Source of the DNA: a virus
Virus record (IMG/VR): IMGVR_UViG_3300029251_000054
Location: 1-31,398 of that record
Length of the DNA: 31,398 bases
Reading direction: 5' to 3' (one strand)
Shown: positions 769 to 20,858 of the stretch, one piece after another
Layout of the letters: every line of letters begins with the position of its first letter
Position numbering within the stretch: the first letter of the stretch is position 1
Program-made: the position numbers and the translations under genes
The notes under the pieces: generated by a model
The model's input: the letters and a program-made list of their open reading frames with translations, nothing else
What the model was told of the DNA's origin: nothing
Databases searched by the model: none

Positions 769-981
769 TTAATCAAATTTTGAAATAAATGTAAAATCTC
801 TTTGTGCTAATACTCTATCTATAATATCTCCTAATTTCTTAGAATTCTCTTTAAATTCATTCATTCACTTATCAAACTCCTTAATAGTATCTTCTGACTT
901 TTTAAGAGTTTCTTTAATATCCGCAATTCTATTTAAATATGAATCTTGGTCTAATAATAATGTATCCTTTGCTTCTAACAT
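769..981 (-). CDS. Hypothetical coiled-coil protein (70 aa, code 4)
   Basis: Minus-strand ATG at 981 is preceded by aaaagg. The frame is open to TAA 771-769 if TGA 867-865 is read as Trp (..EFDK-W-MNEFKEN..). It overlaps the helicase 3' end by 53 nt. An alternative short start is the ATG at 864. Confidence 0.5.
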
Positions 982-2647
982 CCTTTTCAGTTTTAGTTGA
1001 TTTTCTAACTTCAAAATAGTGTTCAATATCTGTTGCCTTTGCAGTTTTCTTTATACCTAAAGTCTTATATACATCAGCAATCTTATTCTTCAATAAAGCT
1101 AAATTGTAGAACATACCATTCTGAATATCTCTTGTAAGTAATTTGGCAACCTTATTTGGCATATTTTTATCTGATATTTTAACAAGCTCCTCTTTAATAT
1201 CTTTAATGCAATAACCCAAAGTTGCCATTCTTTCAAATCCCAGTTTATTAATTGCATCATTTAACCAAGGATATTTAATTAGAGCTTCATTTAATATAGG
1301 AGTTCCAACTTTAAATTTAGTTTCCCATTCAGCTCTTACATCTTTAATAAGCTCCTGAAATGACTTACTAGGAGCTTCAAGGTCTATCTTAATAGATTTA
1401 TCTTCACATTCAGCAACCTTTATAAAGCCATTCTTTAGATATTCATTAGTAAGATTAACTCTTACAGAGTATAAACCTCTTGCAACCTTAAAATTGAATA
1501 TATCTACTTTAGCCATATTTGGGTCAAATTCAAAGGTATAATCCTCATTAATTTGAATATATGTGTCACTTGTAAAGTCTGTAATCTTCTTACGAGCTAC
1601 TTCTGGAAGCTGATTATATGATTCAACTGCAATCTTTGTTTCTTCAATATTCTTTAATGTATTATTTTTAAATGTATCATAATCTATCTCTGCATATCTT
1701 GTGGCTGAATAAAGATGAGTAATCCAATTTAAATATTTACTATTTCTAATTCTACCAGCAATCTGTTGAATTGAAGTAGATATATCTAAAAGAGTCTGAG
1801 CTTTAGAGGAATCACTAACTACAATAATTCTTCCATTTTCATCATAAATATCAGAACCTTCAAATACAGTAGAAGTCAACAAATTAATCTTCTTAGGTTC
1901 ATCATTTACTGAAGAATTCTGAATTGGCAGTTTAGTTCTATTATTCTTAGAATATACTACTCTTGTGTTATCTGCTGTAAGTTTAGCCTTTAAAATAAGA
2001 TTCTTTATAAAGTCAACAGAGTTAACAAATATATAAGCATTACCTTCAACATTTCCACTTAAAAATCCATTTATAAGCTTAATTGTGGAAGCTTCTACAT
2101 TCTTGCATTTGACAGTCTGAACTTTAGTCTCGATAACATCATCCCATTCTTGTCTTACTAATGGCAGTTTAGACAATTCATCTAAAACAAATTCATCTTC
2201 TAATGGAGTTGCAGTCATAAATGTATATTCTTTAAATAGACTATATGTCTTTAATACATCTTTAATTGCATCTCTTCTAAGACTATATTGATTAAATAGT
2301 ATATGATATTCATCAATTAATAAGCTATAATCTTTAGGATTTACTGCTTCTATTACTTTATAAAGAGAATTATAAGTAACAATGATTTTAGGGCATTTAA
2401 CTGAAGATACATAAGCTTCAATGTCTGTCTTAGTAATACCTTGATAAACTCCAAAAATAGGCTCTTTACGTCTTTCATTAGGATATTGAGCAAGTTTATT
2501 CTCAACTAAGCTTACAAATGGAATACATATAACATAAGGCTTATCACACTCTAAAGCCATTGAAGTTCCACCACATCCTACTTTACCTTTGTCAAATAAG
2601 CAGTTAGTAGGTAATTCATTGATTAAATTATTTAAATAAGTTTTCAT
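929..2647 (-). CDS. SF2 (DExH-type) helicase, 572 aa
   Basis: Intact track ORF. It has a P-loop-like GKVGCGGTS, motif II LLIDEYH, motif III MTATP, motif V-like TSTVFEGSDI and motif VI QQIAGRIRN. It ends in TAG. It has no TGA, and all 4 Trp codons are TGG. Confidence 0.8.
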   Translation of the reverse strand: MKTYLNNLINELPTNCLFDKGKVGCGGTSMALECDKPYVICIPFVSLVENKLAQYPNERRKEPIFGVYQGITKTDIEAYVSSVKCPKIIVTYNSLYKVIEAVNPKDYSLLIDEYHILFNQYSLRRDAIKDVLKTYSLFKEYTFMTATPLEDEFVLDELSKLPLVRQEWDDVIETKVQTVKCKNVEASTIKLINGFLSGNVEGNAYIFVNSVDFIKNLILKAKLTADNTRVVYSKNNRTKLPIQNSSVNDEPKKINLLTSTVFEGSDIYDENGRIIVVSDSSKAQTLLDISTSIQQIAGRIRNSKYLNWITHLYSATRYAEIDYDTFKNNTLKNIEETKIAVESYNQLPEVARKKITDFTSDTYIQINEDYTFEFDPNMAKVDIFNFKVARGLYSVRVNLTNEYLKNGFIKVAECEDKSIKIDLEAPSKSFQELIKDVRAEWETKFKVGTPILNEALIKYPWLNDAINKLGFERMATLGYCIKDIKEELVKISDKNMPNKVAKLLTRDIQNGMFYNLALLKNKIADVYKTLGIKKTAKATDIEHYFEVRKSTKTEKDVRSKGYIIIRPRFIFK

Positions 2648-2681: not shown

Positions 2682-2731
2682 TGTAACTTTTTTTATTTAT
2701 CTTACTACAAAATATTAGTAAAAAAGTTACA
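2682..2731 (-). repeat. 50-nt dyad-symmetric intergenic element, copy A. It may be a promoter or operator. Sense orientation is on the minus strand, 34 nt upstream of the helicase ATG
   Basis: The reverse complement tgtaacttttttactaatattttgtagtaagataaataaaaaaagttaca matches copy B (8391-8440) at 43 of 50 positions. The arms are TGTAAC(Y)TTTTTA / TAAAAA(A)GTTACA. Copy B shares the same downstream flank TATAAAAT. Confidence 0.6.
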
Positions 2732-2854
2732 GTAAAGGTTAAAATTAAACTGGGAATTAATCCCAGCTCAATTTTCAATATGGAAGTAGTTTTAGTTTGA
2801 TAGTACAAATATACAACAATTTTTCTCAATCTCCAAATAATTTAAGTATTATTT

Positions 2855-2888
2855 TTCTTGCATAATTAAAAATTTATTCATATATTTG
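2855..2888 (+). promoter_or_regulatory. Candidate Bacteroidota-type promoter for the plus-strand early operon (-33 cTTG, -7 TAtaTTTG)
   Basis: TATATTTG at 2881-2888 fits the TAnnTTTG -7 consensus exactly. ttcttg ends at 2860, 20 nt upstream. The site is 47 nt upstream of ATG 2935. It is a single occurrence, so the support is weak. Confidence 0.3.
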
Positions 2889-2934
2889 CACTATGAAAGT
2901 AAGACATAATATTAACAATTAAACTTTATAAATT

Positions 2935-3114
2935 ATGAAAACTAAACAAATTGAAGCACTTGAATATTTTCTTGATATATTAGATGGTAAGATTACTGAA
3001 GATGGTTCTATTGAGAAAGCTCAAGAATTATGTAATGAGGCATTAAAGGAGATTGAAACCAATGAAAAGGTAAAGAAATCCTCTTGGTTTTTTGGTTTAG
3101 GTATTTCTTTCTAA
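2935..3114 (+). CDS. Hypothetical early protein (59 aa)
   Basis: ATG 2935 to TAA 3112-3114. Translation begins MKTKQIEALEYFLDILDGKITEDGSIEKAQELCNEALKEIETNEK. It is not in the track because it is under 60 aa. It is the first plus-strand ORF after the divergent region. Confidence 0.55.
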   Translation: MKTKQIEALEYFLDILDGKITEDGSIEKAQELCNEALKEIETNEKVKKSSWFFGLGISF

Positions 3115-3125
3115 TATATTTAATT

Positions 3126-3365
3126 ATGAAAAAGATAAATAAAATATTAGCTGGATTATTAGTACTTAGCTTTATTATAGCTGGTATTAGAGTATATAAT
3201 GCTTATGAAGACTACCAAACTAAAACATTTGAGCTTAGATTAGAACAGGCAGAACTCCAGCATAAATTAGACTCTGTAATGTGGTATAATCCTGGAAGTT
3301 CAGAAGTATCTGAATTATATGAACAGTATTGTGATGTAACCTTAAAAATTCATAATGTAAGATAA
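3126..3365 (+). CDS. Small membrane protein (79 aa)
   Basis: In-frame ATG at 3126 within track ORF 3084..3365. The N-terminal hydrophobic helix is KILAGLLVLSFIIAGIRVY. The track start at 3084 is non-ATG and overlaps the preceding ORF. Confidence 0.6.
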   Translation: MKKINKILAGLLVLSFIIAGIRVYNAYEDYQTKTFELRLEQAELQHKLDSVMWYNPGSSEVSELYEQYCDVTLKIHNVR

Positions 3366-3802
3366 TGAAAACAGATATAAGAAGTTTAGTCTTTATAAAG
3401 AATCTATTTAAAGATAAATATAATATAGAAATAGAATGATGTAAAGACGATTATTCCAGATATGATGGAACATTTACTTGGAATAATATAGATTATATAA
3501 TTGAAGTTAAAAGGAGAAAATTTAAATCAGATAAATATCCAACTACAATTATAAACAGGGATAAGTTTGATATACTTAGTAAATGTAACTCTATATTAGT
3601 CATTATATTTGAGGATGGAGTTTATATTTATAAAGATGTAAAAAGAGCTTTTATTAAAGATTCAATGAAATATGGAAGAAGTACAACTGATTTTGGAGGA
3701 GAATATAAATACTCTTTAAAAACAGAGTTATCTTTAAAGAAAGCAATTAAATTAGAAATAGACACAACTTTTAGTAATTATATAAGAAATGACGACATAT
3801 AA
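3365..3802 (+). CDS. PD-(D/E)XK-like nuclease-fold protein (145 aa, code 4)
   Basis: The ATG overlaps the upstream TAA (taATG). It is missing from the track because of TGA 3437-3439 (..NIEIE-W-CKDD..). It has a D..(D/E)xK-like signature, YDG...DYIIEVKRRK. It ends in TAA at 3800-3802. Confidence 0.55.
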
Positions 3803-4280
3803 GGCAATACCTGGATATGAAAACTATTTAATAGGAACTGACGGTTCGGTCTTGAGTACTAGAACCTCAGTTCCGAAAAATATCAAACCTCAACTTCAAA
3901 ATAGTGGATACTATTATGTTACTTTATATAATCCGTTTGGGCCAAAGAAATACCTATTACATAGACTAATGGCAGAAGTTTTCATAGGTAAAAATGACTT
4001 ATGTATTAATCATAAGGACGAAAATAAGCTAAATAATAACTTAGATAATTTAGAGTACTGTACTTATGAGTATAACAATAATTATGGCAGTCATAACATT
4101 AAAATGGGAATTTCTCATAAGAAAGCAATTAAACAGCTATCCTTAGATAGAAGTTTTATTAAGAGATGAGATTCCGCAATAGATGCTGAACGGGAGCTTA
4201 ATATACAATCCAGAAACATTGTAAAGGTTCTTAAAGGTCAGCGAAAAACAGCTGGAGGATTTATTTGGGAATATGAATAA
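3789..4280 (+). CDS. HNH homing endonuclease #1 (163 aa, code 4)
   Basis: NUMOD4-like N-terminus (IPGYENYLIGTDGSV) and HNH_3-like INHKDENKLNNNLDNLEYCT. Track ORF 3789..4169 ends at TGA 4167-4169, but the frame continues to TAA 4278-4280. This adds the DNA-binding tail ..KTAGGFIWEYE. Confidence 0.85.
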
Positions 4281-4581
4281 CAATGAAATAATAGAAAAAT
4301 ACTATCCATTTATTATGGAGTTAAAAGAAAAATTTGGTGCAGATGATGATTGCACACAAATGGTATGTATCGCACTTCTGGAAACATCTAATTCCAAGCT
4401 TCAGTCATTAGATAGTAAGAATGAGCTGAAGTATTGGATTACAAGAGTATTTAAGAATAATTGGTTTTCTAAGAATAGTAGATACTATTACCAATATAAA
4501 AAGTACTATGAAATATTTAAAGAGCCATTAGAACAACAAACGGATAATTTAGAGGATTGGTTAAATGAAGCAGAAGATTAA
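4273..4581 (+). CDS. Sigma-70 family region-2-like protein (102 aa), N-terminal half of a split sigma-like factor
   Basis: The pattern ..GADDDCTQMVCIALLE..(n)..LKYWITRVFKNNWFSKNSR resembles ECF sigma regions 2.1-2.4. No region 4 is present in this ORF. It ends in TAA at 4579-4581. Confidence 0.5.
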   Translation: MNNNEIIEKYYPFIMELKEKFGADDDCTQMVCIALLETSNSKLQSLDSKNELKYWITRVFKNNWFSKNSRYYYQYKKYYEIFKEPLEQQTDNLEDWLNEAED

Positions 4582-4831
4582 TATTGATGATTTATTAATT
4601 GAGTATAACTTTGAAATAGATACCTTTACAGAGATGGATGATAGATTACTTGCAATTTATCCGAAATGAGAGGCATTAAATAGAGCATATAAGACCATAA
4701 TTATCTTATATGCTGAATATCGAAGTTATAGAGAAGTTGGGAAGATTCTGGGAATTAGTCATACTACCATAGCAAGGACAATAACTAACATTAGAAACAA
4801 AATATGTTATGGAAGTTTGGAAGAAGTATAA
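4565..4831 (+). CDS. Sigma-70 region-4-like HTH protein (88 aa, code 4), C-terminal half of a split sigma-like factor
   Basis: ATG 4565 lies 17 nt before the stop of the upstream ORF and is in a different frame. It has one in-frame TGA at 4667-4669 (YPK-W-EAL). LNRAYKTIIILYAEYRSYREVGKILGISHTTIARTITNIRNKI looks like a region 4.2 HTH. It is absent from the track. Confidence 0.55.
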
Positions 4832-5357
4832 AGATTATAACATTGAAGTAAGTAATACAGGAAAAGTTAGGACTACAGAAAGAGATGTATTATATAAAGA
4901 TGGAAGAAGACATCATTATGATAGTAAAGAGTTAAAACAACACATTATTAGGCAATACTATTATGTAACTTTAAGTATTGATGGCAAATCAAAGAATTTT
5001 AGAGTTAATAGGTTAGTTGCAGAATGTTTTATAGAAAATCCATATAATTTACCTATAGTGAATCACAAAGATGAAAACAAGTTAAATAACTCTGCAGACA
5101 ATTTAGAATGATGTACTGCCAGTTATAATAATACATATAATGATTCTCATTTAAAAAGAGGTGTTAACTTACAAAACAAACGAAGTAAAAAAGTTTACCA
5201 ATATAGTTTAGATGGAACTCTTATTAAGATATGGCCTTCTATAAGAGAGATACGTAGAGTAAAAGGATATGATAATGGTCAGATAAGTAAGTGTTGCAAT
5301 AATAAATTAAAAAATAATATTAGCTATGGGTATATTTGGAAGTATTCTATTGATTAA
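4809..5357 (+). CDS. HNH homing endonuclease #2 (182 aa, code 4)
   Basis: The track ORF ends at TGA 5109-5111, inside the canonical motif NHKDENKLNNSADNLE-W-CT. The frame continues to TAA 5355-5357 and has the C-terminal motif GYIWKY. Confidence 0.85.
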
Positions 5358-5379
5358 TTTTATAGTAATAATATATGTA

Positions 5380-5658
5380 ATGTCTGGTATAGATGTTCTA
5401 ATTAGAAAGAAGATATGGGAGCGTTTATATGGTAAAATGCCTTTTAATGAGAATTGGATGTCTAAACCTTGAGGATGTGAGTGGTGCTTAGGAACTTGAA
5501 TAGGTCTTATAAGCTTATTTTGGTTGGGATTTACTCAGATAAATATATTCTTAGTGCTAGTTATTGCTTTTTATAATTTTATTATAAAGGATTGTATGAT
5601 TCTAATTAAAGATATGATTACCAAACTAATAGATATAGTTTATAAATACTTGGATTAA
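5380..5658 (+). CDS. DUF1360-like small membrane protein (92 aa, code 4)
   Basis: ATG 5380. An in-frame TTG at 5350 would add a hydrophobic N-terminus. Two in-frame TGAs lie at 5470 and 5497 (KP-W-GCEWCLGT-W-IGLISLFWLG). The Cys/Trp motif plus TM helices are typical of DUF1360. It ends in TAA at 5656-5658. Confidence 0.6.
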
Positions 5659-5680
5659 AAATAATATATTTTAAATAAAA

Positions 5681-6013
5681 ATGAAAGAATTAACAAAAGA
5701 ACAGTATGAATATTTAAGTAAATTCGATAATAGGTTTAAATGTGCTGTTAGAGCTAACTATTGTCGTAACATCCAAAAAGAAGATACTGAAAGGATGAGA
5801 GCTATTTATGAGGAACTAATAGAGCAGCCATATAAAATGAATATAAACTGCGGAACTTGTGTTCTTAACCTTATAAAGAGACTTGGAGTTTATTACTTTG
5901 AATATGTTGAAAAACTAAAAACTATTGAGGATGAAGGAGCAAATAAAGAAGAAAGTAGGGAGACCGAAAAAGGCAGAGGTAGAAAAGGAACAAATAGACG
6001 AAGTAAAGACTAA
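5681..6013 (+). CDS. Cys-rich hypothetical protein (110 aa)
   Basis: Intact track ORF with four Cys arranged as C-x6-C ... C-x2-C (CAVRANYC, CGTC). Its 3' ~85 nt overlap the TerS frame, so its true end or its expression is uncertain. Confidence 0.5.
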   Translation: MKELTKEQYEYLSKFDNRFKCAVRANYCRNIQKEDTERMRAIYEELIEQPYKMNINCGTCVLNLIKRLGVYYFEYVEKLKTIEDEGANKEESRETEKGRGRKGTNRRSKD

Positions 6014-6374
6014 ATATCTTTATGCTGCAAGGTTATTTAACAAAGGATGGTCAAGGAATAAAGTAAGTGAAGAACTTCAAAGTAAATATAATGTAAGCCA
6101 ATCAACGGCTGCAAGATATATTGGAGAAGCTTATAAGATAATTGCTGAAAAGAATGATAACCTTATAAAAAATCTTAGACATATACAATTATCAAGATTG
6201 GAATCATTACTGGATACTGCTATTAGTAAGGGAGATATTAGAGCTGCAAATGAGATTATTAAGACTATAAATAGTATGTTTGGATTAAATCAACCTGAGA
6301 CTATTGTAGCTATTCAGAATAATGAAGTCCAGTTTAAATTTGGAGATCCAATTAACAATGACAAAAATATATAA
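5931..6374 (+). CDS. Terminase small subunit (putative, 147 aa)
   Basis: First ATG in track ORF 5925..6374. It has a basic N-terminus (KKKVGRPKK), an HTH-like NVSQSTAARYIGEAY and a helical C-terminus. It sits directly upstream of TerL and overlaps it. Confidence 0.6.
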   Translation: MKEQIKKKVGRPKKAEVEKEQIDEVKTKYLYAARLFNKGWSRNKVSEELQSKYNVSQSTAARYIGEAYKIIAEKNDNLIKNLRHIQLSRLESLLDTAISKGDIRAANEIIKTINSMFGLNQPETIVAIQNNEVQFKFGDPINNDKNI

Positions 6375-7605
6375 AGGATATAGCCCATTTATCTATCAAT
6401 TAAAGGTACATACTGCTTTAGAGCACTCTTATAGGTCTGGAAAAATATTTACTGTAAAAGCAAAGAGACAATGTGGTAAATCCTTTATGGCAGAAAATGA
6501 ACTATTACGATTTTCAATTAACTATCCTGGAAGTATTAGCTGTATTGTTGAACCAACTCTTACTAACTCCAGAAAGATATTTAAAGAGTTAGTAAAGGCA
6601 TTAGATGGCACAGATATTATTAAGAAAAAGAATGAATCTTTGCTTGAGATTGAATTTACTAATGGGAGTGAAATACTATTTAAATCTGCTGAGCAAAAAG
6701 ATTCATTACGAGGATTTACAGTTAGTGGAATATTAGTAATTGACGAAGCAGCTTATATATCAGATGAAGTATACGAAATTTTAACACCTATAGCTGATGT
6801 ATGAAATGCTCCAATACTTATAATTAGTACTCCAAGGTTTAGAGAAGGATTCTTTTATGAATGCTTTAAAAAAGGCTTTGATGGTAATTTTAGTAAATAT
6901 TATCAATCCTTTGATTGAGCATTAGAAGATACTTCTATGCTGTTAAGTGAGGATAAACTTGAAATGTATCGCCTTACAACCTCCAAAAATAAATTTAGAA
7001 CTGAATATCTTGGAGAGTTTGCAGATGATGATGGTTGCCTATTTAATAATATAGCTAACTGTATAATTGATAAAAAACCTGAATATCATAATCTCTATAT
7101 TGGAGTTGACTGGGCTACTGGTTCTGGTAAAGACTATACTTGTATTACAGCTTTAAATGAAAATGGGCAGATGGTCTTTATAAAGTATTTTAACAACAAA
7201 ACTCCAACAGAACAAGTTGATTTACTGACAAATATATTTACTGAGTATCAGGGATTTATAAAGATAGTTCAAGTTGAACAAAACTCAATAGGTTCAGTGT
7301 TTTATGATATTCTTGTAAAAAGGAATCCTAAATTACGGATAGTTAAGTTTTTAACTACTAATAAGTCTAAAGCAGCTATTGTAAATAAGCTACAAGCGGC
7401 ATTAGAAAATGAAAAGATTGGTATTTTAAAGGATGATAAACTATTAAATGAATTAAGACTATATGAAGCCAGTTATAATCCAAAGACTGGAAATGTATCA
7501 TATAATGCTCCATCTGGATTTAATGATGATACTTGTATATCTTTAATGTTAGCTTATGATGCTTTAAATACAAATAAAGGAACTTATAATATTGCAATTA
7601 AATAA
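6358..7605 (+). CDS. Terminase large subunit (415 aa, code 4)
   Basis: Track ORFs 6322..6804 and 6937..7605 share one frame and are joined through TGA 6802-6804 and TGA 6916-6918, with no TAA or TAG between. Walker A is KAKRQCGKSF and Walker B is ILVIDEAAY. The C-terminal half is RNaseH-like (IGVDWATGSGKDYT ... NDDTCISL). Confidence 0.85.
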
Positions 7606-8389
7606 TGATAAAGAATTGGAATGAAATGGATTTATCTCATTATAAAAGACTGTTTGAGATAATACGAAAAGACTGGGAAAATGAATTAGATATGAATTTA
7701 GCTATGGTATCTGTACTTAGTGATATACCTATAGAAGATATAACTAATATGGAAGTAAACAAGCTACAAGAGTTTATAAATAATCTTAAATTTATAGAGA
7801 CTCCATATAAGCCAAAAACCCCAGAAACTACTTATAATATTGGTAATAAAGAATATAAAGTCTTTTTTAATGTTAATAAGATGACGGCCAGTCAATATAT
7901 TGACTTTCAGAATTTTTATAAGCAGTATGATGATTTTATGCCTAATCTGGCAGCTTGTTTCTTACTACCTAATGGAAAGAAGTATGGAGAAGATTATGAC
8001 CCTATTGATGAGGCAGAATTCTTAAATACCCATCTAACAATAGATATATTTTCAGACATAATGTTTTTTTTTGTAAACTTATTGCAAGTATCAACGCTGA
8101 GTACCCTACACTCTTCGGAAAGGGAGATGAAGAAGAGACTAAGGAAAACAAGGGACAAACTGGAAAGGAGGAAACTTCTGAAGAGCTTAATACAGACGAG
8201 ACGATTAATCCTTTTACTCAAAAATGAAGCTGAATTATCTGAATAGATAAGGTAAGTGAAGTTACCAGATTTAATTGGCACCAGATATATGATATGCAGA
8301 TTAAAGAGTTTCTTAACATTATATGCTATGTTATAGATAAAGCTAATGAAGAAAATAGACAGATTGAAGAATGAAAAAGAAAACATTAA
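7605..8389 (+). CDS. Conserved phage protein that needs a -1 shift at a T9 run (about 261 aa). It may be assembly/chaperone-like
   Basis: Frame 0 runs from 7605 to the T9 run at 8064-8072. The -1 frame then runs to TAA 8387-8389 and gives a plausible sequence: ..FFFCKLIASINAEYPTLFGKGDEEE...PFTQK-W-S-W-II-W-IDKVSEVTRFNWHQIYDMQIKEFLN.. (4 TGA codons). The frame-0 continuation to 8246 is basic and low-complexity. Confidence 0.55.
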
Positions 8390-8390
8390 C

Positions 8391-8440
8391 TGTAACCTTT
8401 TTACTCATATTTGGTACTAAGATAATATAAAAAAGTTACA
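8391..8440 (+). repeat. 50-nt dyad-symmetric intergenic element, copy B (sense on the plus strand)
   Basis: Sequence tgtaacctttttactcatatttggtactaagataatataaaaaagttaca starts 2 nt after the stop at 8389. It is followed by TATAAAAT, as is copy A. It matches copy A(rc) at 43 of 50 positions and copy C(rc) at 42 of 50. Confidence 0.6.
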
Positions 8441-8447
8441 TATAAAA

Positions 8448-8470
8448 TAGGGAGTAAACCTCCCTATTTT
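8448..8470 (+). terminator. Rho-independent-type hairpin
   Basis: The stem tagggag (8448-8454) pairs with ctcccta (8460-8466). The loop is taaac and TTTT follows at 8467-8470. Confidence 0.6.
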
Positions 8471-8510
8471 CATTAACTACTAATATATAAAATAATATAT
8501 TTTAACAAAA

Positions 8511-8996
8511 ATGAATATTCAAGAATTAAAGTTCTCAAATTTAAGTGAGCTATTAAGGAAGTGAGGAGATCTTATAATTTCTCTTTATAGACAGGAATTA
8601 GTTAAAACCAGATCTGATGACACTGGAGCATTAGGTAATAGTTTAAACTATATAGTTGAGACTCAAGATGGAGACTATGAGGTTAATTTTAGCTTATTAG
8701 ATTATTGAGAATATGTTGAAGAAGGCAGAGCTGCTGGTAAATTTCCTCCATTATCTGATATAAAGAGTTGGATTAAAACTAAGCCAGTAATTCCAAGACC
8801 TTATAATGGCAAGTTACCTACTGTAGATCAACTTGCATATTTAATTGGAAGAAAGATACATCTTCAAGGAACTCAAGGTAAACATCCATTATCAAATACT
8901 ATAGAATATATAGAAAATAACTATATGGAACTTCTTGATGATGCAATTACAAAAGATTTAGAAACACAAGTTGATAATGTATTTAAAAACTTTTAA
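8511..8996 (+). CDS. Virion neck/tail-completion-like protein (161 aa, code 4), similar to the HK97 gp10 family
   Basis: ATG 8511 to TAA 8994-8996, through TGA 8562-8564 and 8706-8708. Motifs are TGALGNSLNY..., LLDY-W-EYVEEGRAAGKFPP and IKSWIKTK. It is entirely absent from the track. Confidence 0.6.
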
Positions 8997-8998
8997 AA

Positions 8999-11179
8999 AT
9001 GGCATTTATACCAAGTAAATTAGGAATATATAATGCATCAAGGAGTTTTCCTGTTAAATGGAATAATCCTGGATGGGGAATTACTGGAGAATATGATTAT
9101 TGGACTTGGGGAGATGATTATACTGAAGAAGGGCCTTTAGAGGTAACTATACAAGAGCCTAGTACTTCTGGATGTACAATACAATTTTTATCTCCTACAA
9201 CAATAACTACTGATTCTTCTACTGTATTTCATTTTTATCCTAGAGGTATTACTACTGCTTTATTAGGGGAAGATTTACCAATTAATTTACATAGTAAAGC
9301 TCCTGGATATTATCCTGCTAATGGCACCATTAAAGTACCAAATACTGGTGGAGAATATACAGTAGAGTATATATTAAATAGATCAGATATTATTAAATGA
9401 GATGCAGCAGTTGTTAATGCTACAGCTTTAGTTAATATGGAAGTTCTGGATTGAGATTCTTGCTCTATTAAGTTTAAAGTTACAGTAAGAGCTAATACTC
9501 AATGAAATACTGATTTAACTGCAACTATCCAATTAGGGGCTTATTATGATACTAATAAACTTATTAGTTATAGTTATGGCTTTAAGATTGAAAAGAGTAA
9601 TACTCCTGAAGATTTAAAGTTAGTAGTAACTCCTTCTTCTGGAACTTATGGAGCAGCAGCTTTTGTTACTGAAGAATTTCATTTAAGTACAACTAAAACA
9701 GAAGAAACTATTACTTCATTTAATGTTACCTGTCCACAAGCTAGTAATATTAAAAAGGATATTATTGATAACTACTTTGTATTAACTGTTCCAGAGAATA
9801 AAACTACTAATAATTTGGAGTTTAGTGCAATGGTTACTGCAACAACTTCTGGAGGTTATAATCTTGAAGCTACAGTTCCAATTAAACAAGCTGCAACGTA
9901 TTTAGTGATTCCTAATACTAATTATGAAGTAAGTTGGACTGCATCTACATTAAATATTATGGGAACAGGTTCTAATAACTTAGATGATGTTGTATTTAGT
10001 ATTCCTGTAGGTTGGATTAGTGGACAGAAGATAACTGTAAATTCTCAAGGTGTAGCAACTATTAGTTTGAACATTGCAGAAAATTCAGGATTATCTTCAA
10101 GAAAAGCAACCATTGGAGTATCTGTTATAAAGAATAGTTCAAGTATTATTAATTTATCTATTAATATTACACAATCTGTTAAATCTGATATATCTCCTAT
10201 TTGGAAAGATTATGTTTGGGAAGAAATTATCAGTTCTGATTTTATTGAATATCATCTAGATTATGCAGGAGAAATGGTGTATGCAGGTAAAGCTTATAAA
10301 TATCCTGAAACTGATAGAGTAGAGTTTTTATTAAATAATGTTGCTGAAAATTATCTATCTAACGGTATTATATTTAATACTTCTAAAACTATAATATCTC
10401 CAGAATATTTGAAACCATTTACATTAATAACTTCATCTGGAAATGAAAAACCAATTACTTTTTTCAATGATTGGAGTTATAAAGATAGAGATTTGACTAA
10501 AGGTACTATGTTAAGTGATCCTATTACTGGTTTAGTTGATCCAAGACAATATTTAGTAGCAAGTTGAATTTTACCAACTGGAACGGGAGTTGTTAATAGA
10601 TTTTTTTATGTAGATGGAACATCAACTGCTATAGATATTAGTTTAAATTCTGGAATTAATGGATATACATATACAGAAGATTTAAGCAATAAACTATGGC
10701 CTTGTGGGAGCTATTTAATAGTAGGATTTGTAGAAGACGGAAATATTAGTGATAGACAGATTAGATATGATATAGATACTACAGGTAAAGATTATGTGTT
10801 ATATTATACTAATTCAGCAGGAGGGTGGGATTCATTACTTGTTGAGGGTAATGTTAAAAAGAATGATGAGATTAAATCTGAAACATATACTCGCAAGGTA
10901 TTAAATACATCTCAAGAATTTGCAAGGAATAAGTATTTAAATACTATAACTTCAAGCTGGATTCTTTATACTGGTTATTTAAATGATATTCAAGCTTCTA
11001 AGATGTTTAATCTAATTGAGAGTACCAAAGTATATTTGCATAATCTTAAAGATAATACTATTACTCCAGTATTAATTACAGATACAAATTGTGAATATAA
11101 AACTTATACTAATCAAGGTAAGAATAAGTTCTACTATACAATTAATGTAGAAGCTTCTCAAGCTACTTATCGTAAATAA
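8999..11179 (+). CDS. Large tail/virion protein with Ig-like (BACON-like) repeats (726 aa, code 4)
   Basis: Track ORFs 8999..9400, 9815..10567 and 10796..11179 share one frame. I checked the gaps codon by codon and they contain only TGA (9398, 9452, 9503, 10565), with no TAA or TAG. The repeated signature ..N(I/T)..N.....R.A.I.V (AENSGLSSRKATIGVSV) is present. Confidence 0.8.
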
Positions 11180-11181
11180 TT

Positions 11182-14100
11182 ATGAGAAAGAATATTAAAT
11201 TATTTATTGCAGGAAAAGAAGTACATTGTTCTGAAGGCATATCATTATCAATGACTTATACTGTAGAAGATTTTCAGAATCCAACAATAGTAAAAAATTC
11301 ATTCAGTAAGACTATAAGCATTCCAGGAGACAAAAATAATAATAAGATATTTGGAGAGATTTATAAGTTAGATAGATTTCTTCATATAAAAGAAGGTAAT
11401 TTCTCTGGAGTATATTTTGATCCTTCAAAAAGAGTTGACTTTGGAATCTATAATAATGGATATTTAGTTGAATCAGGATATATGCAGTTAAATAGCATCT
11501 CTATAAAGCAAGCAGTTATTACTTATAATATTACTTTATATGGAGGATTGGGAGATTTCTTTTATGGACTTAAATATAAAGAAGATGGCACTATTAGAAC
11601 TCTAGCTGATTTACAATACTTTGTAACTGGTGAAGATGGTAATGTACTTCCTACCGATACTGAAATGAATTTCTACATTAATAAAGATTTTGTAAATACT
11701 TGTTTTAATTGGAGTAAAGTAAATGACGGAAGTCAAATTTATGATTTTTTAACATTTATTCCTGCATATAACGGTTTATATGAAAACTTTGATAATGAAA
11801 CTTGTTTAATAAATACTAATGGAGATAATTTATTTCCTACTAGTAAGACCGATTCAGGAACTACATACACACCTTATAATGGATATGGATTAGCTAAATT
11901 AAATAGAGCATATACAGAATGGGAGATGAGAGACCTTAGAAGTTATATGCAAAGGCCAGCATTAAAATTAAGTAAGTTAATTGAAACTATATGTAGAAAA
12001 GAGAATTCTGGATACGATGTTATAATGGATCAAGATTTCTTTAATTATTCAAATCCATATTGAAATAAAGCGTTTGTTGCATTACCTTTACTAGGATCTA
12101 CTGAAGATGAAGAATCAGATAATATTACAGAGAATGCTAAACTTACTAAATATAATGATTTGTTTTGGTGTGGATTAAAACCTGGAGGAACAACTACTTC
12201 AGTAAACTGAGGAAGATTTAGTGTTACAGGGAGTGATGTAATAGTACCTGGTGAAGGACAAGTAATTGATTTATCTGCAACTCCAGCTAATACTCTTGTT
12301 AATATTAATGTTGATTTTCAGTTATTCTATAATGCAAATGTTTCTGCAGGTAATGATTTATACCTATCCTATGTATTAAATGGAAGATATGGAAATGCAG
12401 ATTATACAAATCATCCTTATAGAACCTCAGTAACAGCCCAAATATTAATATATGATGCTGAGGATACTGGAAGTAAACCTATTGCATATTCTCCTTTATA
12501 TAACTTTACAAATAAAATAAATACTCAAGTTCAATCTGGGCCTGGCACTTGGTTTAATTATTATCCATTAACTGATGCACCTGTAGAAGCTATTTATGGG
12601 CATTTTGTAAAAGATAGTGGAAATAGGTATTATTTCAAAAGTGATAATAATACTAATACTTTCAGATTTACTGTAAAAGATATGCCTAAAGTTAATAAGA
12701 TTTTAGTAAATATACAAATTGCAAGAAGAACTGAAAATTTATATAACCAAGATGCTGTATGACAGTCAGATAATATGCATCCTAATAATGTCACAGCAAA
12801 TAGAGTTGCTGGATGGTCAGAATTTTTATATGATGAAGATCAATATACGCTAAAAGCGTCTTGGCCTTCAGCAGTTACTTCTGATGCTTTAATTACTAAG
12901 CAGAAATTATTAAAGACAGAACAATCTCCTGCTGATTACTTATTAAGTTATGCAAAACTATTTGGATTATATTTTACAAAAGATATTGATAGTAAAACAA
13001 TTAGAATATATACTAGAAATAATTTCTTTAAGAATATAATCTCTGATTGGAGTAAAAGGATTGATTATTCTAAAGACTTCAATGTAAATCCAATATTATT
13101 TGATAAGAAGTGATACACTATGTCATTAGAAACTCCAGAAACATATTATGCCAAGAAATATGATAGACAATATGATATAGATTATGGTCAGCAAAGATTA
13201 AACACTGGATATAATTTTAATAGTGATAATACTGATTTATATTCTGGAAATATATTTCAAAATGTAGTATCAGCAAGAGATGCAGATAAGTATTTTAGAA
13301 ATTTCTTTAATTCTGGAAATACTTATGTACCTGCATTTATGAATGATAATATTACATATAGTTTATTTAATAGAACTTCTACAGAAGTAAAGACTAATGA
13401 TCAGGATTTATATGGAGCTAATTTTATAGACCAAGGTAAGACTACAGAATGGTGGGATGTTCCTGGAAATGATATATTTGCAAAAACTTGTTTTTATACA
13501 TTAGATAATAATGAACAAAGTCTTGAAGAGATAAAAAGTACTTTATTATTTTATAATGATGATGTTAATATGAAAGATATAAATGGTAATCCTATTTATT
13601 ATTGGATTACTGATGATGTTACAGAAATGTCAGTTCTTAATGATGGAGAACCTTGTTATATCTATACTAATAGTGAAAATAATTCTGCAGGACAAAAAAT
13701 AGCTATTAGAAGAAACATATTACCACAATTTATAAGATACACTATTTCTAGTAATTTTATATCTTCATCTTGAGATTTTGGGGTTCCAAGAGAAATATAC
13801 ATTGATAAAGTTAGTTATTTAGAACAATCTACTTTATATAGTAGATTCTGGAATGAGTTTTATAATGATCAATTTGATGTAAATACTAAAAAAGTTACCT
13901 GCTTTGTAAGATTGGATGATTTAGATGTTAAGTATGATTTACTTAGACAGTTCTATTATTTTGAAGATTCTTACTGAATACTTAATAAGATTGATGCTTA
14001 TGATATTAATTCAGATTCTACAGTTAGATGTGAATTTATTAAAGTTCAAGATATTAATAGTTATTTAGCTGGAGTTCAAAATTTAGGTGAGTATATATCA

Positions 14101-14616
14101 TTTGACGATTCAGATCCAATAGTAGATTATAAAGCTGGGACTAAAAAGATTACAGTTACTTCTAATATTCCTTGAGAATTAGGATGATATAGTCCAAATG
14201 AAATTGTAAGCATTACACCTGAATCTGGGCAACCTGGAGAAACAGAATTAACAGTTACTTATAATGAGAATACTAAATATGACCAAAGAAGTTTCTACTT
14301 TAGTCTTTATAAACAAGGAGGCGTAGGTAGTCCTAAATGTATGTTTACTCAAACTCCAGACCCAAATAAAGCTATTCTTATTACAGGCAAATTAGAAACT
14401 CCAAGTGGCACTATACCAACTGGGGTAAATCAGATACTTACAGAAAACGATAACTTCTTGAATGTGGCTTATATGCAGGATAATGGAAATTATAGAATAT
14501 ATGCTCAAAAAGGTGTTCAGTTTAAATTTGAAGTGACTGATGAACCTACAGGAACAGTTAAATATACAGAGAATTTAACACTAACAGAAGATACTGTTAA
14601 AAATATTACAATCTAA
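11182..14616 (+). CDS. Large tail-tip/baseplate or fibre protein (1144 aa, code 4) with a C-terminal BACON-like domain
   Basis: Track ORFs 11182..12063, 12775..13113, 13120..13773 and 14341..14616 share one frame. Checked codon by codon, the gaps contain only TGA (12061, 12208, 12760, 13111, 13771, 13975, 14173, 14185). The sequence ..ITVTSNIP-W-ELG-W-YSPNEIVSITPESGQPGETELTVTYNENTKYDQRSFYF has the BACON pattern. Confidence 0.8.
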
Positions 14617-17375
14617 TGGCACAAACAGAAATTAAAAAAGTAATTAGTATTGATACTAAGTCAAGTAATAAGTCAATAAACTCTTTAAAGAAAGATATTG
14701 ACGCATTATCTAATTCGCTGAATGATTTAGAGATTGGTACTAAGGAATATAATGAAACTCTTTCATTACTTGGTAAGAGACAATCAGAATTCAATAAAAT
14801 TAATGAGCAGATAGCAAGATCTTCAAGAACTACTGCTCAAAGGTTTGAAAGTGTAGCTAAAATATCCACTGGTTTGGCCAGTGGATATGGAGCTGCAACA
14901 GCTGCCATTACTTTATTTGGGAAAGAATCTGAAGATTTAACTAAAGTAATGGTTAAGTTACAGTCATCTATTGCATTAGTACAAGGTATTGGAGGTATAA
15001 AAGATTTATTAGAAGAATTGCCTACTTTAGGTAATTGGTTTAAGAAATTAACTGATTTTATCTCTCCATTTAATACAGGGTTGAATAATGCTGCCAAAAA
15101 TCTTAATCAGATTGATGCATCTAAGCTTAATGGCATTGGCACATCTGTTGGTAATGTTGGAACTGAATTAGGTAATATCTCTAAAGTAGTCAAGGATTTA
15201 GAAGGCACCAATATTAATTTTAAAGGAGGTATGATTCAAGGAGTAATGGGCACTCCTGCTGAAATATCTGCTACTAATAAGAGTGTATCTAATACGATTC
15301 CGATTATAGGTAAATTAGGAGAAACTGCAAAAAAGTCCTTTGAAGAAGTAAAACCTACATTTACTACAGTTGCTGAATTTTTAAAGGAAGCAGCAAAAGA
15401 GACTGGAACTCCAGCAGAGAGAATGCAGAAAGCTGCTAAACGTTTAGGTGTAGATCTTGCTGAATTAAAGGAAAATGTAGAAAAAGGCATTCCAACTTTG
15501 CGAAAAGGGGCAGAGGCTCAGAAAGCAATGGCTGAAGCTTCAGAACAAGCTGCTTCTGGAGTAGGTAAAGTTAAAACTGCACTTAAAACTATTGGTAATG
15601 TAACTGTATGAATTGCATTAGCTACAGCTATTGGATTAGCTATTAATAAGATAATAGAGTATATATCCTCAATAAAATCAGCTGAAAAGGAGGCTGCTGA
15701 ATTTAGAAAGTCTATTACAGATACTACTAATCAGATTGCTTCTAAATCTATAGCTATCTTTAGAGAGTTACAAATAGCTTACGAAAGGGTTGGAGATTCT
15801 GCAGATGCTAAGCGTAAGTTTATAGAGCAATATTCCGATAAGATTAAAGAGACTGGTTTAAATATCACTGATGTAAAGACTGCAGAAGATGCGTTTGTAA
15901 ATAATACTGGTAATTATGTAGAAGCATTAACTGCAAGAGCAAAAGCTCAGGCTATTGAACAGGCTGCAATTAAGCTTTATGAGGAGTATTTAAATAAACG
16001 TACTGAACTGGAGAATCAAATTTCTGATACAAGTTTTGGAGAGGCATCTGCTTGGCAGGCTTTTAAAGCTACAGCAATGTTCTGAAAAGATTATTCAAAT
16101 ACAATTTATGAGTATACAAAGCAAAATAAAGAGAATACTTATAAACAGTTGGATGATTTAAATAAAGACATTGAGAAAAGGATTAAAAAGCTATTTGAGG
16201 ATGTAGCAGATACTAATAAAAAGTATGGTGGGTTCTTTAATATTCCAACTATTACAAAGAACACTACTGAAGCTAAGAAGGTAATAAATGAATTTGATGA
16301 ATGGCTTCAAAAGAGATTAGAGGATAAAGACCCAGTAGATGAACTTGAAGATGAATATATTAGACTATTAGCATTAGCTATTAAGTATAATAGGGGAATT
16401 GAAGAGGTAGAAGCTTGGCATCAAGAAGAGCTGAAGAAAATTAGAGATAAGGCTAGAGAAGATGAAGAAAATGCAAGAAAAAGTGCTGCGGATAAAGCTT
16501 GAGATGATCTGCAGACTGAGTTAAAAAGAATGCGCGAGGCAAGGTATGATGTAAAAGATACATCTTTAGAAATTCCTAAAACTCAATATACACAAGGATT
16601 TGCCAAAATATTTGGATTAAGTGGTGAGTTCTCTTATTCAAGCAAAAAAGACATAGAGGGATATAAAGATCGTTTATTAGGAACAGATACTGAAGAAGGT
16701 TCTATAGATAAATATCATAATCAAATAAAAACAAGATTGGAGGAGCAGAAGTCTTTTCTATTAAAACAATTAGAAAATGAGACTTTAACAGCTGATCAGA
16801 GAAAACTTATTAAACTAGAATTAGATTCTATTGATGAGCAATTAACTGAAAATGAAATAGACAGAGAAAATAAGAAAAACAAAGTTAGAGAAAATGTTAA
16901 TAAGCAATATCAAGAATCTATAAAAGCTCGCCTTGATCTAGCATCAAAGGTTGCAGGAAGTATGGCAACTATATGAGGAGAGGAAAGTAAAGTAGGTAAA
17001 GGATTCGCAACAGCTCAAGCTTTAATTGATACATATAGTGCAGCTAACAGTGCTTATTCTGCAATGGCTGGTATTCCAGTTGTAGGTCCAGCTTTAGGTG
17101 CTGCCGCCGCTGCCGCAGCAATTGCAGCTGGTATAGCTAATGTTAAAAAGATCTGGGAAGTAGACGAAACTAGTGGAGCATCTGCATCTTCTGCTTCTGC
17201 ATCTATTGCAGCACCTGCTGCTTTAAATACTGCTCCTGTAGAATATACTCGAAACTTACTTGGAGATAAAGAAACTGACCTTTTAAATGAACCTGTTAAG
17301 TGTTATGTTGTTGAATCTGACATTACTTCAGCTCAAACTAAAGTTGCAGTTACTGAATCTAATGCTTCATTCTAG
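14616..17375 (+). CDS. Tail tape measure protein (919 aa, code 4)
   Basis: Track ORFs 14616..15611, 16149..16502, 16530..16976 and 17064..17375 share one frame, joined through TGA 15609, 16083, 16500 and 16974. The protein is long, alpha-helical and Ala/Gln/Lys/Glu-rich. It has Gly/Ala-rich hydrophobic segments (GLASGYGAATAAITLFG, GIPVVGPALGAAAAAAAIAAGIA). It ends in TAG at 17373-17375. Confidence 0.8.
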
Positions 17376-17385
17376 AAATGTTTAA

Positions 17386-17435
17386 TGTAACTTTTTTATT
17401 CTTATTAACTACAAAATATGAGTAAAAAGGTTACA
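17386..17435 (-). repeat. 50-nt dyad-symmetric intergenic element, copy C (inverted relative to copy B)
   Basis: The reverse complement tgtaacctttttactcatattttgtagttaataagaataaaaaagttaca matches copy B exactly over the first 22 nt. It lies between the TMP stop (17375) and the protease ATG (17488). Confidence 0.6.
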
Positions 17436-18697: not shown

Positions 18698-19335
18698 TGT
18701 ACCATTATATTTATGAAATTCAGCCTTTAATGCCTGGATGGGAAAACACTTACTATATAGGCAAGCATAGTACTGATGAAGATCCATTTAATAATAGCTA
18801 TGCAGGAAGTGGCACTATTCTTACTAATTACTATAGTAAATATGGCAAGATTAAAGATGTTACTTACAGAAAAGTTATAATTGAATTTAATGATTCTTCA
18901 AAAGATAATGCTTTAAGAGAAGCTGATATTATAGGCGATTGTTATAACACCGATAAGAGATGTTTAAATCTTAAACCAGGAGGTTATGGAGGAATGACTC
19001 CAGAAATAGCTATTAAAATATCAGAATCTTGCAAAGGTCGTAATCCCTGAAATAAACACAAAACGGGAGTATATAATGCTGAAACTACAGAAAGACTTAA
19101 AAATATAGCTATAAATAGAGAGTTTACTTCAGAGACAAGAAAAAGGATGTCTGAATCTCATATAAATAAAGGTACTAAATCAATCATTATGCTAGATTTA
19201 GAAGGAAATATAATTAAAACTTATCCTTCAATTAAAAATGCTGTTTTAGATGGATACTGTAAAAGCTCTATTCTTAGAGTATTAAACGGAAAATATAAAC
19301 AGCATAAAGGTAAAATATTTAAGTATAACAATTAA
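18697..19335 (+). CDS. GIY-YIG homing endonuclease #3 (212 aa, code 4), inserted between the scaffold and capsid genes
   Basis: Its ATG overlaps the scaffold TAA. The N-terminus is YIYEI...YYIGKH. Track ORFs 18697..19050 and 19147..19335 share one frame, joined through TGA 19048-19050. NUMOD3-like repeats are present (SESCKGRNP-W-NKHKTG, SESHINKG). Confidence 0.8.
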
Positions 19336-20815: not shown

Positions 20816-20824
20816 CAACAGAAG

Positions 20825-20858
20825 AGGGGCGAGTATTAATTTACTTGCCCCTTATTTT
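20825..20858 (+). terminator. Strong rho-independent terminator after the capsid/tail-tube genes
   Basis: The stem aggggcgagta (20825-20835) pairs with tacttgcccct (20842-20852), including one G:U pair. The loop is ttaatt and tattttg follows. Confidence 0.75.

Follow-up and report, generated by a model that had tools for sequence, protein, structure and literature searches.

What is the function of a palindromic 50-nt element that occurs three times in one small phage genome, at boundaries between gene modules? The window, that is, the whole stretch of 31,398 nt analysed here, is a complete circular phage genome of ~31.3 kb, and almost the entire genome is transcribed in one direction. Its open reading frames are sensible only with TGA as a sense codon. 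The first-pass annotation had considered three candidate functions: a phage-specific promoter, an operator for a dimeric regulator and a hairpin for RNA processing or termination. The hairpin gained support from covarying arms, better folding of the gene strand and sites just after stop codons; the promoter found little support and the operator was weakened. Judged from sequence, the element most likely marks where gene blocks end, a form of punctuation well known from phage genomes. The more specific reading is a lineage-specific repeated imperfect palindrome that would act as an mRNA-strand hairpin and shape mRNA 3' ends; we give it a probability of about 50%.

The pattern TGTAACNTTTTT-N(18-32)-AAAAANGTTACA matches the window exactly three times and never in 100 dinucleotide shuffles. 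Copy A lies at 2682-2731, copy B at 8391-8440 and copy C at 17386-17435, precisely where they had first been described. An identity of about 84-86% had been reported; the upper end was correct and the measured range is 82-86% (ungapped, in the orientation first used: A-B 43/50, A-C 41/50, B-C 42/50). The first 22 nt of copy B and of the reverse complement of copy C are the same, and the 13-nt inverted arms and the core ACT(A/C)ATATTT(T/G)GTA were also described correctly. An additional TATAAAAT after copies A and B is present in the window, but in one sub-lineage, which has an identical copy B between different flanks, TATAAAAT is not conserved.

Copy A is located in a divergent region between a helicase-like gene on the minus strand and early genes on the plus strand. 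The covariance model matched it on the plus strand at 2680-2733 with 24.9 bits. It precedes the ATG of the helicase-like gene (929-2647, minus strand) by 34 nt; this gene is downstream of copy A in the sense first assigned. The gene had no Pfam or PHROG match; the SF2 motifs GCGGTS, DEYH, TAT and QxxGRxxR were recognised by eye. Copy B, matched on the minus strand at 8389-8442 with 29.4 bits, is inverted relative to the surrounding plus-strand genes and flanked by a stop codon at 8387-8389 and a gene at 8511. Copy C (plus strand, 46.2 bits) was said to follow the stop of the tape-measure gene, and indeed begins 10 nt after it and ends 52 nt before the ATG of a protease-like gene at 17488. The tape-measure-like gene (14616-17375, plus strand) matches phrog_3336, tail length tape measure, with an E-value of 4.9e-9 and requires TGA as a sense codon.

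Relatives were retrieved using the helicase-like gene. A motif search in related phages had been proposed as a check, and it found the element conserved: an nhmmer profile detected 122 sites in 44 sequences, and the family spans about 45 related human-gut phage genomes in IMG/VR, with 3-5 sites per genome. The sites fall at six fixed position classes, all of them module boundaries. Presence varies. Class F occurs in one group only. At position D, most relatives carry the element, whereas the window has a plus-strand GC hairpin at 26643-26669 (GGGAGA-TTTTAT-TCTCCC and a T-run, after the stop at 26632-26634) without the 50-nt element. In L114, a more distant relative, the site of copy C is taken by an ordinary GC terminator. 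No true match was found in 185,579 species genomes. Rfam gave no matches at gathering thresholds, and permissive E-values returned weak miRNA-precursor-like hairpins far below threshold. The element is restricted to one narrow phage clade.

The orientation of the element follows the genes. Among the relatives, 115 of the 122 copies, which represent about six position classes and not 122 independent events, are opposite to the sense first assigned. The polarity of 108 copies is that of the bulk genes; seven class-F copies stand after an oppositely oriented helicase gene and follow the polarity of that gene. Inverted copies are limited to 7 of the 122, all at position B. Copy C had been called the inverted one, and this has to be reversed: A and C carry the usual orientation of the family and B is the inverted copy. 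Inversion of copy B extends to at least 16 contigs of the window's own clade; 12 relatives have the forward form between homologous flanks. The element usually starts 0-9 nt past the stop codon of a module's last gene, mostly at 0, 3 or 9 nt. Copy A has no plus-strand gene upstream. Read in gene direction, the consensus is (A/T)TGTCAG-TTTTTATTTaTTtTA-[loop nCTACn]-aaaGTGAGTAAAAAaC-TTGACA, in short form TGTCAG-TTTTTATTT...TGAGTAAAAAAC-TTGACA.

The outer 6 bp of the arms covary as AAC/GTT, CAA/TTG and CTA/TAG. In paired columns, 92.7% of the cells pair, compared with 84.7% in shuffles (0/500 reach the observed value), in an alignment that a covariance model had fitted to the structure and that holds 10 distinct paired-column combinations with few independent changes. 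The covariation score was 0.185 versus 0.053, and slid controls gave at most 54.6% pairing. Compensatory changes in the arms, another check proposed at the outset, were seen as double changes at four pairs, in only 10 distinct rows. Some arm changes are unpaired; TGTCTA stands opposite TTGACA in 7/41 variants. A palindromic DNA site would keep both arms complementary, too. Conservation of the loop and of the 3' arm (TGAGTAAAAA) exceeds what a simple hairpin requires, which suggests sequence-specific recognition by some factor.

RNA of the mRNA strand is predicted to fold into a hairpin whose stem consists of 15-21 A-U and G-U pairs. Of 39 distinct variants, 35 fold more stably on the forward strand, and the mean energies are -11.5 versus -7.5 kcal/mol (difference 4.0). 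The strand in gene direction folds better because of G-U pairs, on average 2.8 in the forward strand versus 0.85 in the complement. Three U-G pairs (TTTAT opposite GTGAG) are conserved and now and then replaced by C-G. The four exceptions are copy A of the window, one copy B variant (L055) and two variants with a TTTAAA 5' arm (L092, L076). Within the window, copy C folds best: its plus strand forms a 21-bp hairpin of -19.7 kcal/mol (z -7.26; 0/200 shuffles as low), compared with -11.9 for the minus strand. The strands of copy A are about equal (-10.4 and -11.5 kcal/mol, z about -2.8). Copy B as transcribed, on the plus strand, is no better than shuffles (-8.4 kcal/mol, z -1.5), and its minus strand reaches -12.0 kcal/mol (z -2.9). 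Across the variants, the A-U-rich stems have a modest stability of -5 to -19 kcal/mol. Predicted stems are 19-21 bp long in classes C-G1, E, E2 and E3 and only 11-16 bp or interrupted in A-G3, A-G4, D2 and C3. Group 1 copies are without a bulge, and a bulge is not conserved in the family.

The element was rejected as an intrinsic terminator. Its stem is rich in A-U and G-U, not in GC, and the terminator scan leaves it unflagged. Classes A, D and E lack a U-run past the 3' arm; in F and part of the C copies, the sequence there is no more than U-rich. The GC hairpins next to the element do match an intrinsic (Rho-independent) terminator. Short GC-rich hairpins of this type follow 5-15 nt after the element at three of five usual positions (A, B/E and D), and in 67/108 cases the 48 nt that come next have a folding energy of -8 kcal/mol or lower. 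In the window, the hairpin CTGGGA-ATTAA-TCCCAG (2750-2766) lies 18 nt past copy A on the plus strand. It has T-runs on both strands, with TTTAATTTT next on the minus strand, and the terminator scan flags it on the plus strand; relatives have GGCAGG..CCTGCC in the same place. Copy B is followed after 9 nt by a terminator-like plus-strand hairpin, (ATA)GGGAG-TAAAC-CTCCC(TAT) and then TTTTC (8447-8471), which was read directly. It is kept beside the element in both element orientations. The terminator scan omits it; our guess is that the A and T runs pair and consume the T-tail.

As a hairpin at mRNA ends, the element would contribute to making or protecting the 3' end of the upstream module's mRNA, perhaps by blocking 3' exonucleases or as the target of an RNase III-type double-strand-specific nuclease whose cut would leave a 3' hairpin as protection. 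At copy C, and at class F in relatives, which have no GC terminator behind them, it may be a weak attenuator. The early/packaging, tail, head and fibre/portal modules would thereby be separated in expression. The inverted copy B of the window's clade would retain only the 13-bp arms as RNA structure and so may be weakened.

The RNase III sites of phage T7 (R0.3, R1.1 and others) are several paralogous intergenic hairpins of ~50 nt, read along transcription. Their stems are near two helical turns with a bulge or internal loop, and after cleavage a 3' hairpin remains and stabilises the mRNA upstream. The element resembles them as a set of ~50-nt paralogous hairpins between genes that are mostly read along transcription. 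In contrast to the T7 sites, with which it has no sequence similarity, its stems contain hardly any pairs other than A-U and G-U, many variants fall short of 20 bp, a bulge is not a constant feature and one position is inverted in half of the genomes. An idealised E. coli RNase III substrate has 22 bp, and in bulged substrates cleavage may be confined to one strand, which leaves 3' hairpins that stabilise (PMC3867540).

Variable presence and the two orientations at position B between homologous flanks also fit a selfish or recombination-linker repeat (REP-, MITE- or PeSL-like) that is copied among intergenic sites in either orientation by gene conversion or recombination, with RNA effects being secondary. 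Copies in the same genome are more alike than positional orthologues, and group 1 copies A, B and C all have TGTAAC. The genomes are strongly mosaic, and the unpaired TGTCTA change has spread without its pairing partner. This origin is unlikely. Genes for a transposase, recombinase or integrase were not found in the genome, the 3-5 copies always occupy the same few module boundaries and no target-site duplication is visible at the class F insertion. Mosaic breakpoints are not clearly at elements; contig 134784 switches near 2856-2881 and not at copy A. Selection on the RNA is indicated by the biased orientation and by the G-U asymmetry.

REP and BIME sequences of enterobacteria are repeated imperfect palindromes after stop codons that occur in either orientation, protect upstream mRNA as 3' hairpins and evolve in concert within a genome. 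REPs are chromosomal, GC-rich and ~35 nt long, have hundreds of copies and are linked to RAYT transposases. The element is likewise a repeated imperfect palindrome after stop codons, intergenic and in either orientation, but it is confined to phages, AT-rich and limited to 3-5 copies without an accompanying transposase. PeSLs of T4-type phages, a precedent for conserved terminator/promoter cassettes as recombination linkers, combine a strong sigma-70-like early promoter with a G/C-rich stem-loop that attenuates transcription; about 50 occur per genome and recur at the boundaries of variable modules in mosaic genomes (PMC2839356, PMC4122927). Like them, the element has a stem-loop and recurs at module boundaries of mosaic genomes; a GC hairpin is its neighbour. 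Its conserved part is the A-U hairpin itself, unlike in PeSLs, a promoter was not detected within it and promoter-like boxes lie outside.

A combined origin is still less likely: a self-propagating palindrome borne by phages, the viral counterpart of REP or MITE, may have been copied to module boundaries in either orientation via gene conversion or template switching and then co-opted as RNA punctuation. The inverted copy B and the forward copy C are 84% complementary on one strand. If such a palindrome were at work, these two copies could pair over ~50 nt in a read-through transcript of the window's clade and flank the 9-kb tail module, which a double-strand-specific nuclease could then excise.

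Dyad symmetry and the joint change of both arms between groups would also suit an operator, in which a dimeric DNA-binding protein occupies both 13-bp arms to regulate neighbouring modules or insulate them. An operator would explain similar copies in one genome, such as TGTAAC in A, B and C of the window, and would tolerate the inversion at B. The HTH product of 4565-4831 is a candidate regulator. Its gene overlaps with 4273-4581 in a pair of small plus-strand genes (4273-4831), which resemble sigma region 2 (by eye) and sigma region 4 or an HTH. The product of 4565-4831 scored 23.4 bits against Sigma70_r4_2, under the cut-off of 25.7, and 33.6 bits against HTH_50, and weakly matched phrog_1740, a sigma factor family. 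The operator is improbable. Single genomes mix arm types, and the half-site sequence is not uniform: contig 134784 has TGTCAA/TTGACA at A and TGTAAC/GTTACA at B, contig 094921 has TGTCTA/TAGACA at F beside TGTCAG/TTGACA at D, and group 1 genomes with a D copy mix them as well. The coexistence of arm types in one genome, while each copy stays self-complementary, weakens a dimeric operator. The half-sites are 37 bp apart centre to centre, and the middle is conserved and asymmetric. Three conserved T-G oppositions and a strand asymmetry in folding are unexpected in a duplex DNA site, and a symmetric site needs no strong orientation bias. The candidate HTH protein does not vary with arm type; its recognition helix ISHTTI is identical across all arm types, and its C-terminal alleles have no correlation to them.

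About as improbable is an RNA site for an antitermination factor, or a self-acting put-like RNA, which would let the polymerase pass the GC terminators once a phage factor is made and so create a temporal cascade along the plus strand. The position of the element just upstream of terminator-like hairpins at A, B/E and D, the conserved loop and 3' arm as a specific recognition site, and the single transcription direction of nearly the whole genome agree with it. The nut sites of phage lambda and put sites of HK022 are transcribed hairpins ahead of terminators that alter the response of the polymerase to those terminators. They are located just downstream of promoters, one per operon, act processively and have a boxA/boxB or two-stem architecture. 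Unlike at nut and put, no terminator stands behind copies C and F, and the GC terminators at 463-483, 20823-20849 and 26643-26660 of the window are without an element. A recognisable antiterminator gene was not found in the genome. The element cannot compete with the terminator stem because it does not overlap with it.

The promoter first proposed is very improbable. TGTAAC would be an AAC-type -35 box with (T/G)GTA as -10 box ~16 nt on, served by the split sigma-like factor 4273/4565, with copy A driving the helicase operon and copy B the tail operon. The sigma-like genes are present, every group has copy A 25-34 nt ahead of the helicase ATG, copy B in the clade of the window faces the gene at 8511 and the TGTAAC-N16-xGTA geometry presumably resembles ECF promoters such as TGAAAC-N16-CGTA. 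However, AAC is not conserved, as TGTAAC becomes TGTCAA, TGTCAG, TGTCTA or TTTAAA in relatives, and the spacing to the GTA core varies from 16 to 18 nt. In the sense first assigned, 115/122 copies aim into the 3' end of the preceding gene and away from the next; only class A and inverted B copies face a gene start. At B, the terminator-like hairpin would immediately follow the supposed promoter. A promoter would have no use for a covarying 3' arm or for G-U asymmetry, and the region-4-like recognition helix is invariant, with C-terminal alleles independent of arm type. The promoter and operator readings are therefore poorly supported, given the orientation, folding, covariation, mixed arm types and invariant recognition helix.

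A DNA hairpin or cruciform for replication, packaging or nicking is hardly credible: the palindrome, its fixed polarity along the genome in most copies and the many DNA endonucleases of the phage would suit it, but class F polarity follows its own gene and not the genome, copies are placed precisely after stop codons, G-T oppositions weaken DNA hairpins and 3-5 dispersed sites are unlike pac, cos or ori.

Integron attC sites are imperfect palindromes at the 3' ends of cassettes with the termini RYYYAAC ... GTTRRRY, used as folded single strands. Group 1 copies of the element read ATGTAAC ... GTTACAT and are alike in this respect. In contrast to attC, AAC/GTT is not conserved in other groups (CAA/TTG or CTA/TAG), and the genome has neither an integrase nor a cassette structure.

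Promoter-like TATATTT(T/G) boxes, similar to the group 1 core (C/A)ATATTT(T/G), are located upstream of several genes. They lie downstream of the element, outside its conserved part, and others sit between the GC hairpins and the next ATG, which counts against the element as a promoter. Two back-to-back promoter-like sites, read by likeness to a consensus, occur at 2806-2888: TTG-N20-TATATTTG at 2858-2888 on the plus strand and TTTG-N20-TATATTTG at 2837-2806 on the minus strand. They are candidate early promoters distinct from the element.

The arm pattern TGTAACNTTTTT-N(18-32)-AAAAANGTTACA matches the window only at 2682-2731 (copy A), 8391-8440 (copy B) and 17386-17435 (copy C), where the first-pass annotation had placed three copies of a roughly 50-nt imperfect palindrome. 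None of 100 dinucleotide shuffles had a match. Read in the orientation assigned there (TGTAAC...GTTACA, here the original sense), the copies are 82-86% identical, close to the 84-86% first given. B and the reverse complement of C do have their first 22 nt in common, and TATAAAAT directly follows both A and B. Rfam provided no family match for the element. The motif is present in many IMG/VR contigs, nearly all from one data set, described in a preprint as co-assembled from human faecal samples. Relatives were fetched with the helicase-like and capsid proteins and their loci stitched together; a profile search of these detected 122 copies in 44 sequences, with 3-5 per genome. The element is a real, conserved, lineage-specific repeat. 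From its sequence, it is best read as a transcribed RNA hairpin at module ends, of a known general kind, and not as a promoter.

The first and last 98 nt of the window (1-98 and 31300-31397) are identical, and the window is therefore a complete genome of about 31.3 kb, circular or terminally redundant. Long open reading frames, in early and late genes alike, appear only with TGA as a sense codon; 38 in-frame TGA codons are present, and no gene uses TGA as its stop. It probably encodes tryptophan (code 4), because one homing-endonuclease paralogue has TGA where five others have tyrosine or tryptophan. No tRNA genes or Rfam families were found in the window. Among 50,697 phage records, searched by megablast with 25 kb and by tblastn with the capsid protein, no sequenced relative was found. 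Genes lie on the plus strand almost throughout, and the minus strand is limited to the helicase-like gene (929-2647) and the few small genes that follow it. The first plus-strand block holds early genes, including the sigma-like pair and several HNH and GIY-YIG endonucleases, and is followed by the large terminase (6322-7605). The tail block (8511-17375) has the tape-measure-like gene (14616-17375) last, and the head block starts at 17488 with a protease-like gene. Fibre-like genes, the portal and the endolysin follow in that order, all on the plus strand. The endolysin is an M15 peptidase (30721-31170), which implies a walled host.

The copies in the relatives sort into six position classes (A, B/E, C, D and F). 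Class A lies in the divergent region beside the helicase gene, class B/E after the gene ending at 8389, class C after the tape-measure-like gene and class D after the homologue of 25666-26634. Class F is located immediately 3' of the helicase stop and occurs in one group only. The D position of the window has a GC hairpin without the element. Mostly, the element starts 0-9 nt 3' of a stop codon. Classes A, B/E and D also have a short GC-rich hairpin plus T-run 5-15 nt downstream of the element; C and F have none there. Strong GC-rich terminator-like hairpins also occur without the element beside them, at 463-483, 20823-20849 and 26643-26660; the first is flagged on both strands, at the convergence of plus- and minus-strand genes.

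The original sense opposes the bulk gene direction in 108 of the 122 copies and likewise opposes the adjoining helicase gene in the 7 class F copies. The resulting 115/122 overstates the evidence, because the independent positions number only about six. The opposite orientation is limited to position B in the window's clade, with 7 copies here and more in the IMG/VR motif search. The flanks of position B are homologous whichever way the element points: a shared stop-codon context lies to the left and a shared GGGAG..CTCCC hairpin to the right. The element was therefore inverted or replaced in situ. In gene direction, the element reads TGTCAG-TTTTTATTT...TGAGTAAAAAAC-TTGACA. Next to copy B, a second plus-strand frame is open from 7973 to a TAA at 8387-8389 that abuts the copy. 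It overlaps the end of gene 7605-8246, which it may extend by a frameshift, or it may be a small gene of its own whose start is unusual. A minus-strand open reading frame at 7994-8386 has the appearance of low-complexity antisense.

Strand-biased folding and arm covariation favour the RNA hairpin among the candidates of the first-pass annotation; its promoter and operator candidates find little support. The RNA strand in gene direction forms a stem of up to 21 bp, much longer than the 13-nt arms, because TTTAT lies opposite GTGAG with three U-G pairs. Of 39 distinct variants, 35 are stabler on this strand than on the complementary one; the mean folding energy is -11.5 versus -7.5 kcal/mol and the mean number of G-U pairs 2.8 versus 0.85. 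Copy C folds best on the plus strand (-19.7 kcal/mol, z -7.3, 0/200 shuffles; minus strand -11.9, z -3.8). Copy A is about equal on both strands (plus -10.4 kcal/mol, z -2.7; minus -11.5, z -2.9). For copy B, the transcribed plus strand does not rise above shuffles (-8.4 kcal/mol, z -1.5), and the minus strand reaches -12.0 kcal/mol (z -2.9).

The arms were checked for compensatory changes, and the outer arms covary. Upstream of the helicase gene, TGTAAC/GTTACA becomes TGTCAA/TTGACA, and class F has TGTCTA/TAGACA, with complementarity retained. In a plain MAFFT alignment, indels put the 3' arm out of register, so that RNAalifold found no structure. A covariance-model alignment was used instead; the model was built from five class D/E copies and recovered all classes. 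The alignment included the two strands of each palindrome, so reverse-strand hits were removed by script and the paired columns re-entered. The outer 6 bp then alternate between CG/AT, AT/TA and AT/CG/GU, and the middle helix is near-invariant. In the paired columns, 92.7% of cells pair versus 84.7% in shuffles, none of 500 shuffles being as high, and the covariation score is 0.185 versus 0.053. Slid controls reach 54.6% pairing at most. Four pairs have changed on both sides. This covariation backs an RNA structure and is supportive rather than conclusive, because it comes from 10 distinct rows in an alignment made to the structure. Conservation of the loop and the 3' arm suggests that some factor reads the sequence of the element besides its shape.

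T7 RNase III sites and REP elements are hairpins that shape or guard mRNA 3' ends. By analogy with both and with published work on RNase III (PMC3867540), the hairpin would either form or protect the upstream mRNA's 3' end or attenuate read-through. A GC terminator, where present, would work in tandem with it.

A repeat that spreads through gene conversion, the route suggested for PeSL cassettes (PMC2839356, PMC4122927), would also fit the presence/absence differences of copies, the inversion at B and the similarity of copies within a genome; mosaic breakpoints show no clear coincidence with element positions. An operator for a dimeric regulator had been suggested, which is at odds with arm types that are mixed within single genomes while each copy remains self-complementary. 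Against a phage-specific promoter, AAC in the supposed -35 varies among relatives. The recognition helix ISHTTI of the sigma-region-4-like protein is unchanged in all groups, and the two C-terminal alleles of this protein do not track the arm type. With either arm as -35, a -10-like hexamer at 16-17 nt occurs in class C only, and a sigma-70-type promoter is therefore rejected as a general reading. The Bacteroidetes-type -7 box TAnnTTTG has only a near-match within the element in group 1, the group of the window, and is absent elsewhere, and the attC-like AAC/GTT ends are not conserved across relatives.

Promoter-like boxes TATATTT(T/G) are found outside the element, back to back at 2806-2813 (minus) and 2881-2888 (plus), and at about 5664, 8494, 17474, 20884 and 26692. 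Those at about 5664, 8494, 20884 and 26692 lie between GC hairpins and the next ATG. The 8-mer shows no clear overall enrichment. In several blocks, boxes of this type lie 10-55 nt upstream of the first gene. The two divergent boxes have TTG or TTTG 20 nt upstream and so resemble Bacteroidetes promoters of the -33/-7 type. The gene after the helicase gene has this box immediately 5' of its ATG in relatives, a hint of leaderless mRNAs. A 38-nt direct repeat (5643-5680 and 8474-8511, 79% identity) abuts the ATGs at 5681 and 8511, includes AATAATATATTTTAA and may be a promoter or translation-start region common to both genes. The overlapping genes 4273-4581 and 4565-4831, kept in all relatives, have the appearance of a split sigma factor. 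The first resembles sigma region 2 by eye, the second region 4 or an HTH just under the Pfam threshold, and the two might be joined by a frameshift.

Relatives with a capsid identity of ≤68% have no element detectable by the covariance model; in one of them, position C is occupied by an ordinary GC terminator. When 185,579 bacterial and archaeal species genomes were scanned for the pattern, the only hits were 4 attributable to chance, which leaves no host clue and no cellular copies. Unrelated IMG/VR phages that matched the arm pattern with any loop were set aside as a different thing. Four of them from other samples (loci L039, L040, L041 and L047) have 3-5 TGTAAC/GTTACA repeats clustered in short intergenic stretches, which look like an operator array of another kind.

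If the hairpin reading is true, this uncultivated human-gut phage clade with TGA as tryptophan marks its gene-module ends by a conserved RNA hairpin of its own. This would offer a concrete starting point for studying how such phages keep early, tail and head expression apart, and the clade would gain a simple sequence marker. The family comparison corrects the promoter annotation suggested by the three window copies alone. T7 RNase III sites, REP elements and PeSLs have made this kind of element familiar, so its value lies in annotation and as a testable example rather than in any new principle.

Six free-standing homing-endonuclease-like genes, three HNH/NUMOD and three GIY-YIG-like, are present in the 31-kb genome (3789-4280, 4809-5357, 18697-19335, 25065-25664, 28178-28801 and 2-454, which wraps the origin), and several vary among close relatives. 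A 29-codon open reading frame at 20899-20987 terminates in EEQKAIATNKNWVLA. It may be the leftover of a swapped cassette, because its C-terminus resembles those of two fibre-like proteins, which end at 24307 and 26634. One relative (loci L075, L096 and L034) lies at the end of the 148,631-bp contig IMGVR_UViG_3300045988_175865, whose other 115 kb could be host DNA, with the phage as a prophage, or chained co-assembled phage genomes. A distant capsid relative (L131; 33% identity) has a higher GC content and the standard code. It carries a 73-nt repeat at 11558-11630 and 19169-19241 with the 3' end TTGTATATTTGCATACG, by its sequence a textbook promoter of the Bacteroidetes type, which places Bacteroidota phages within the broader capsid lineage.
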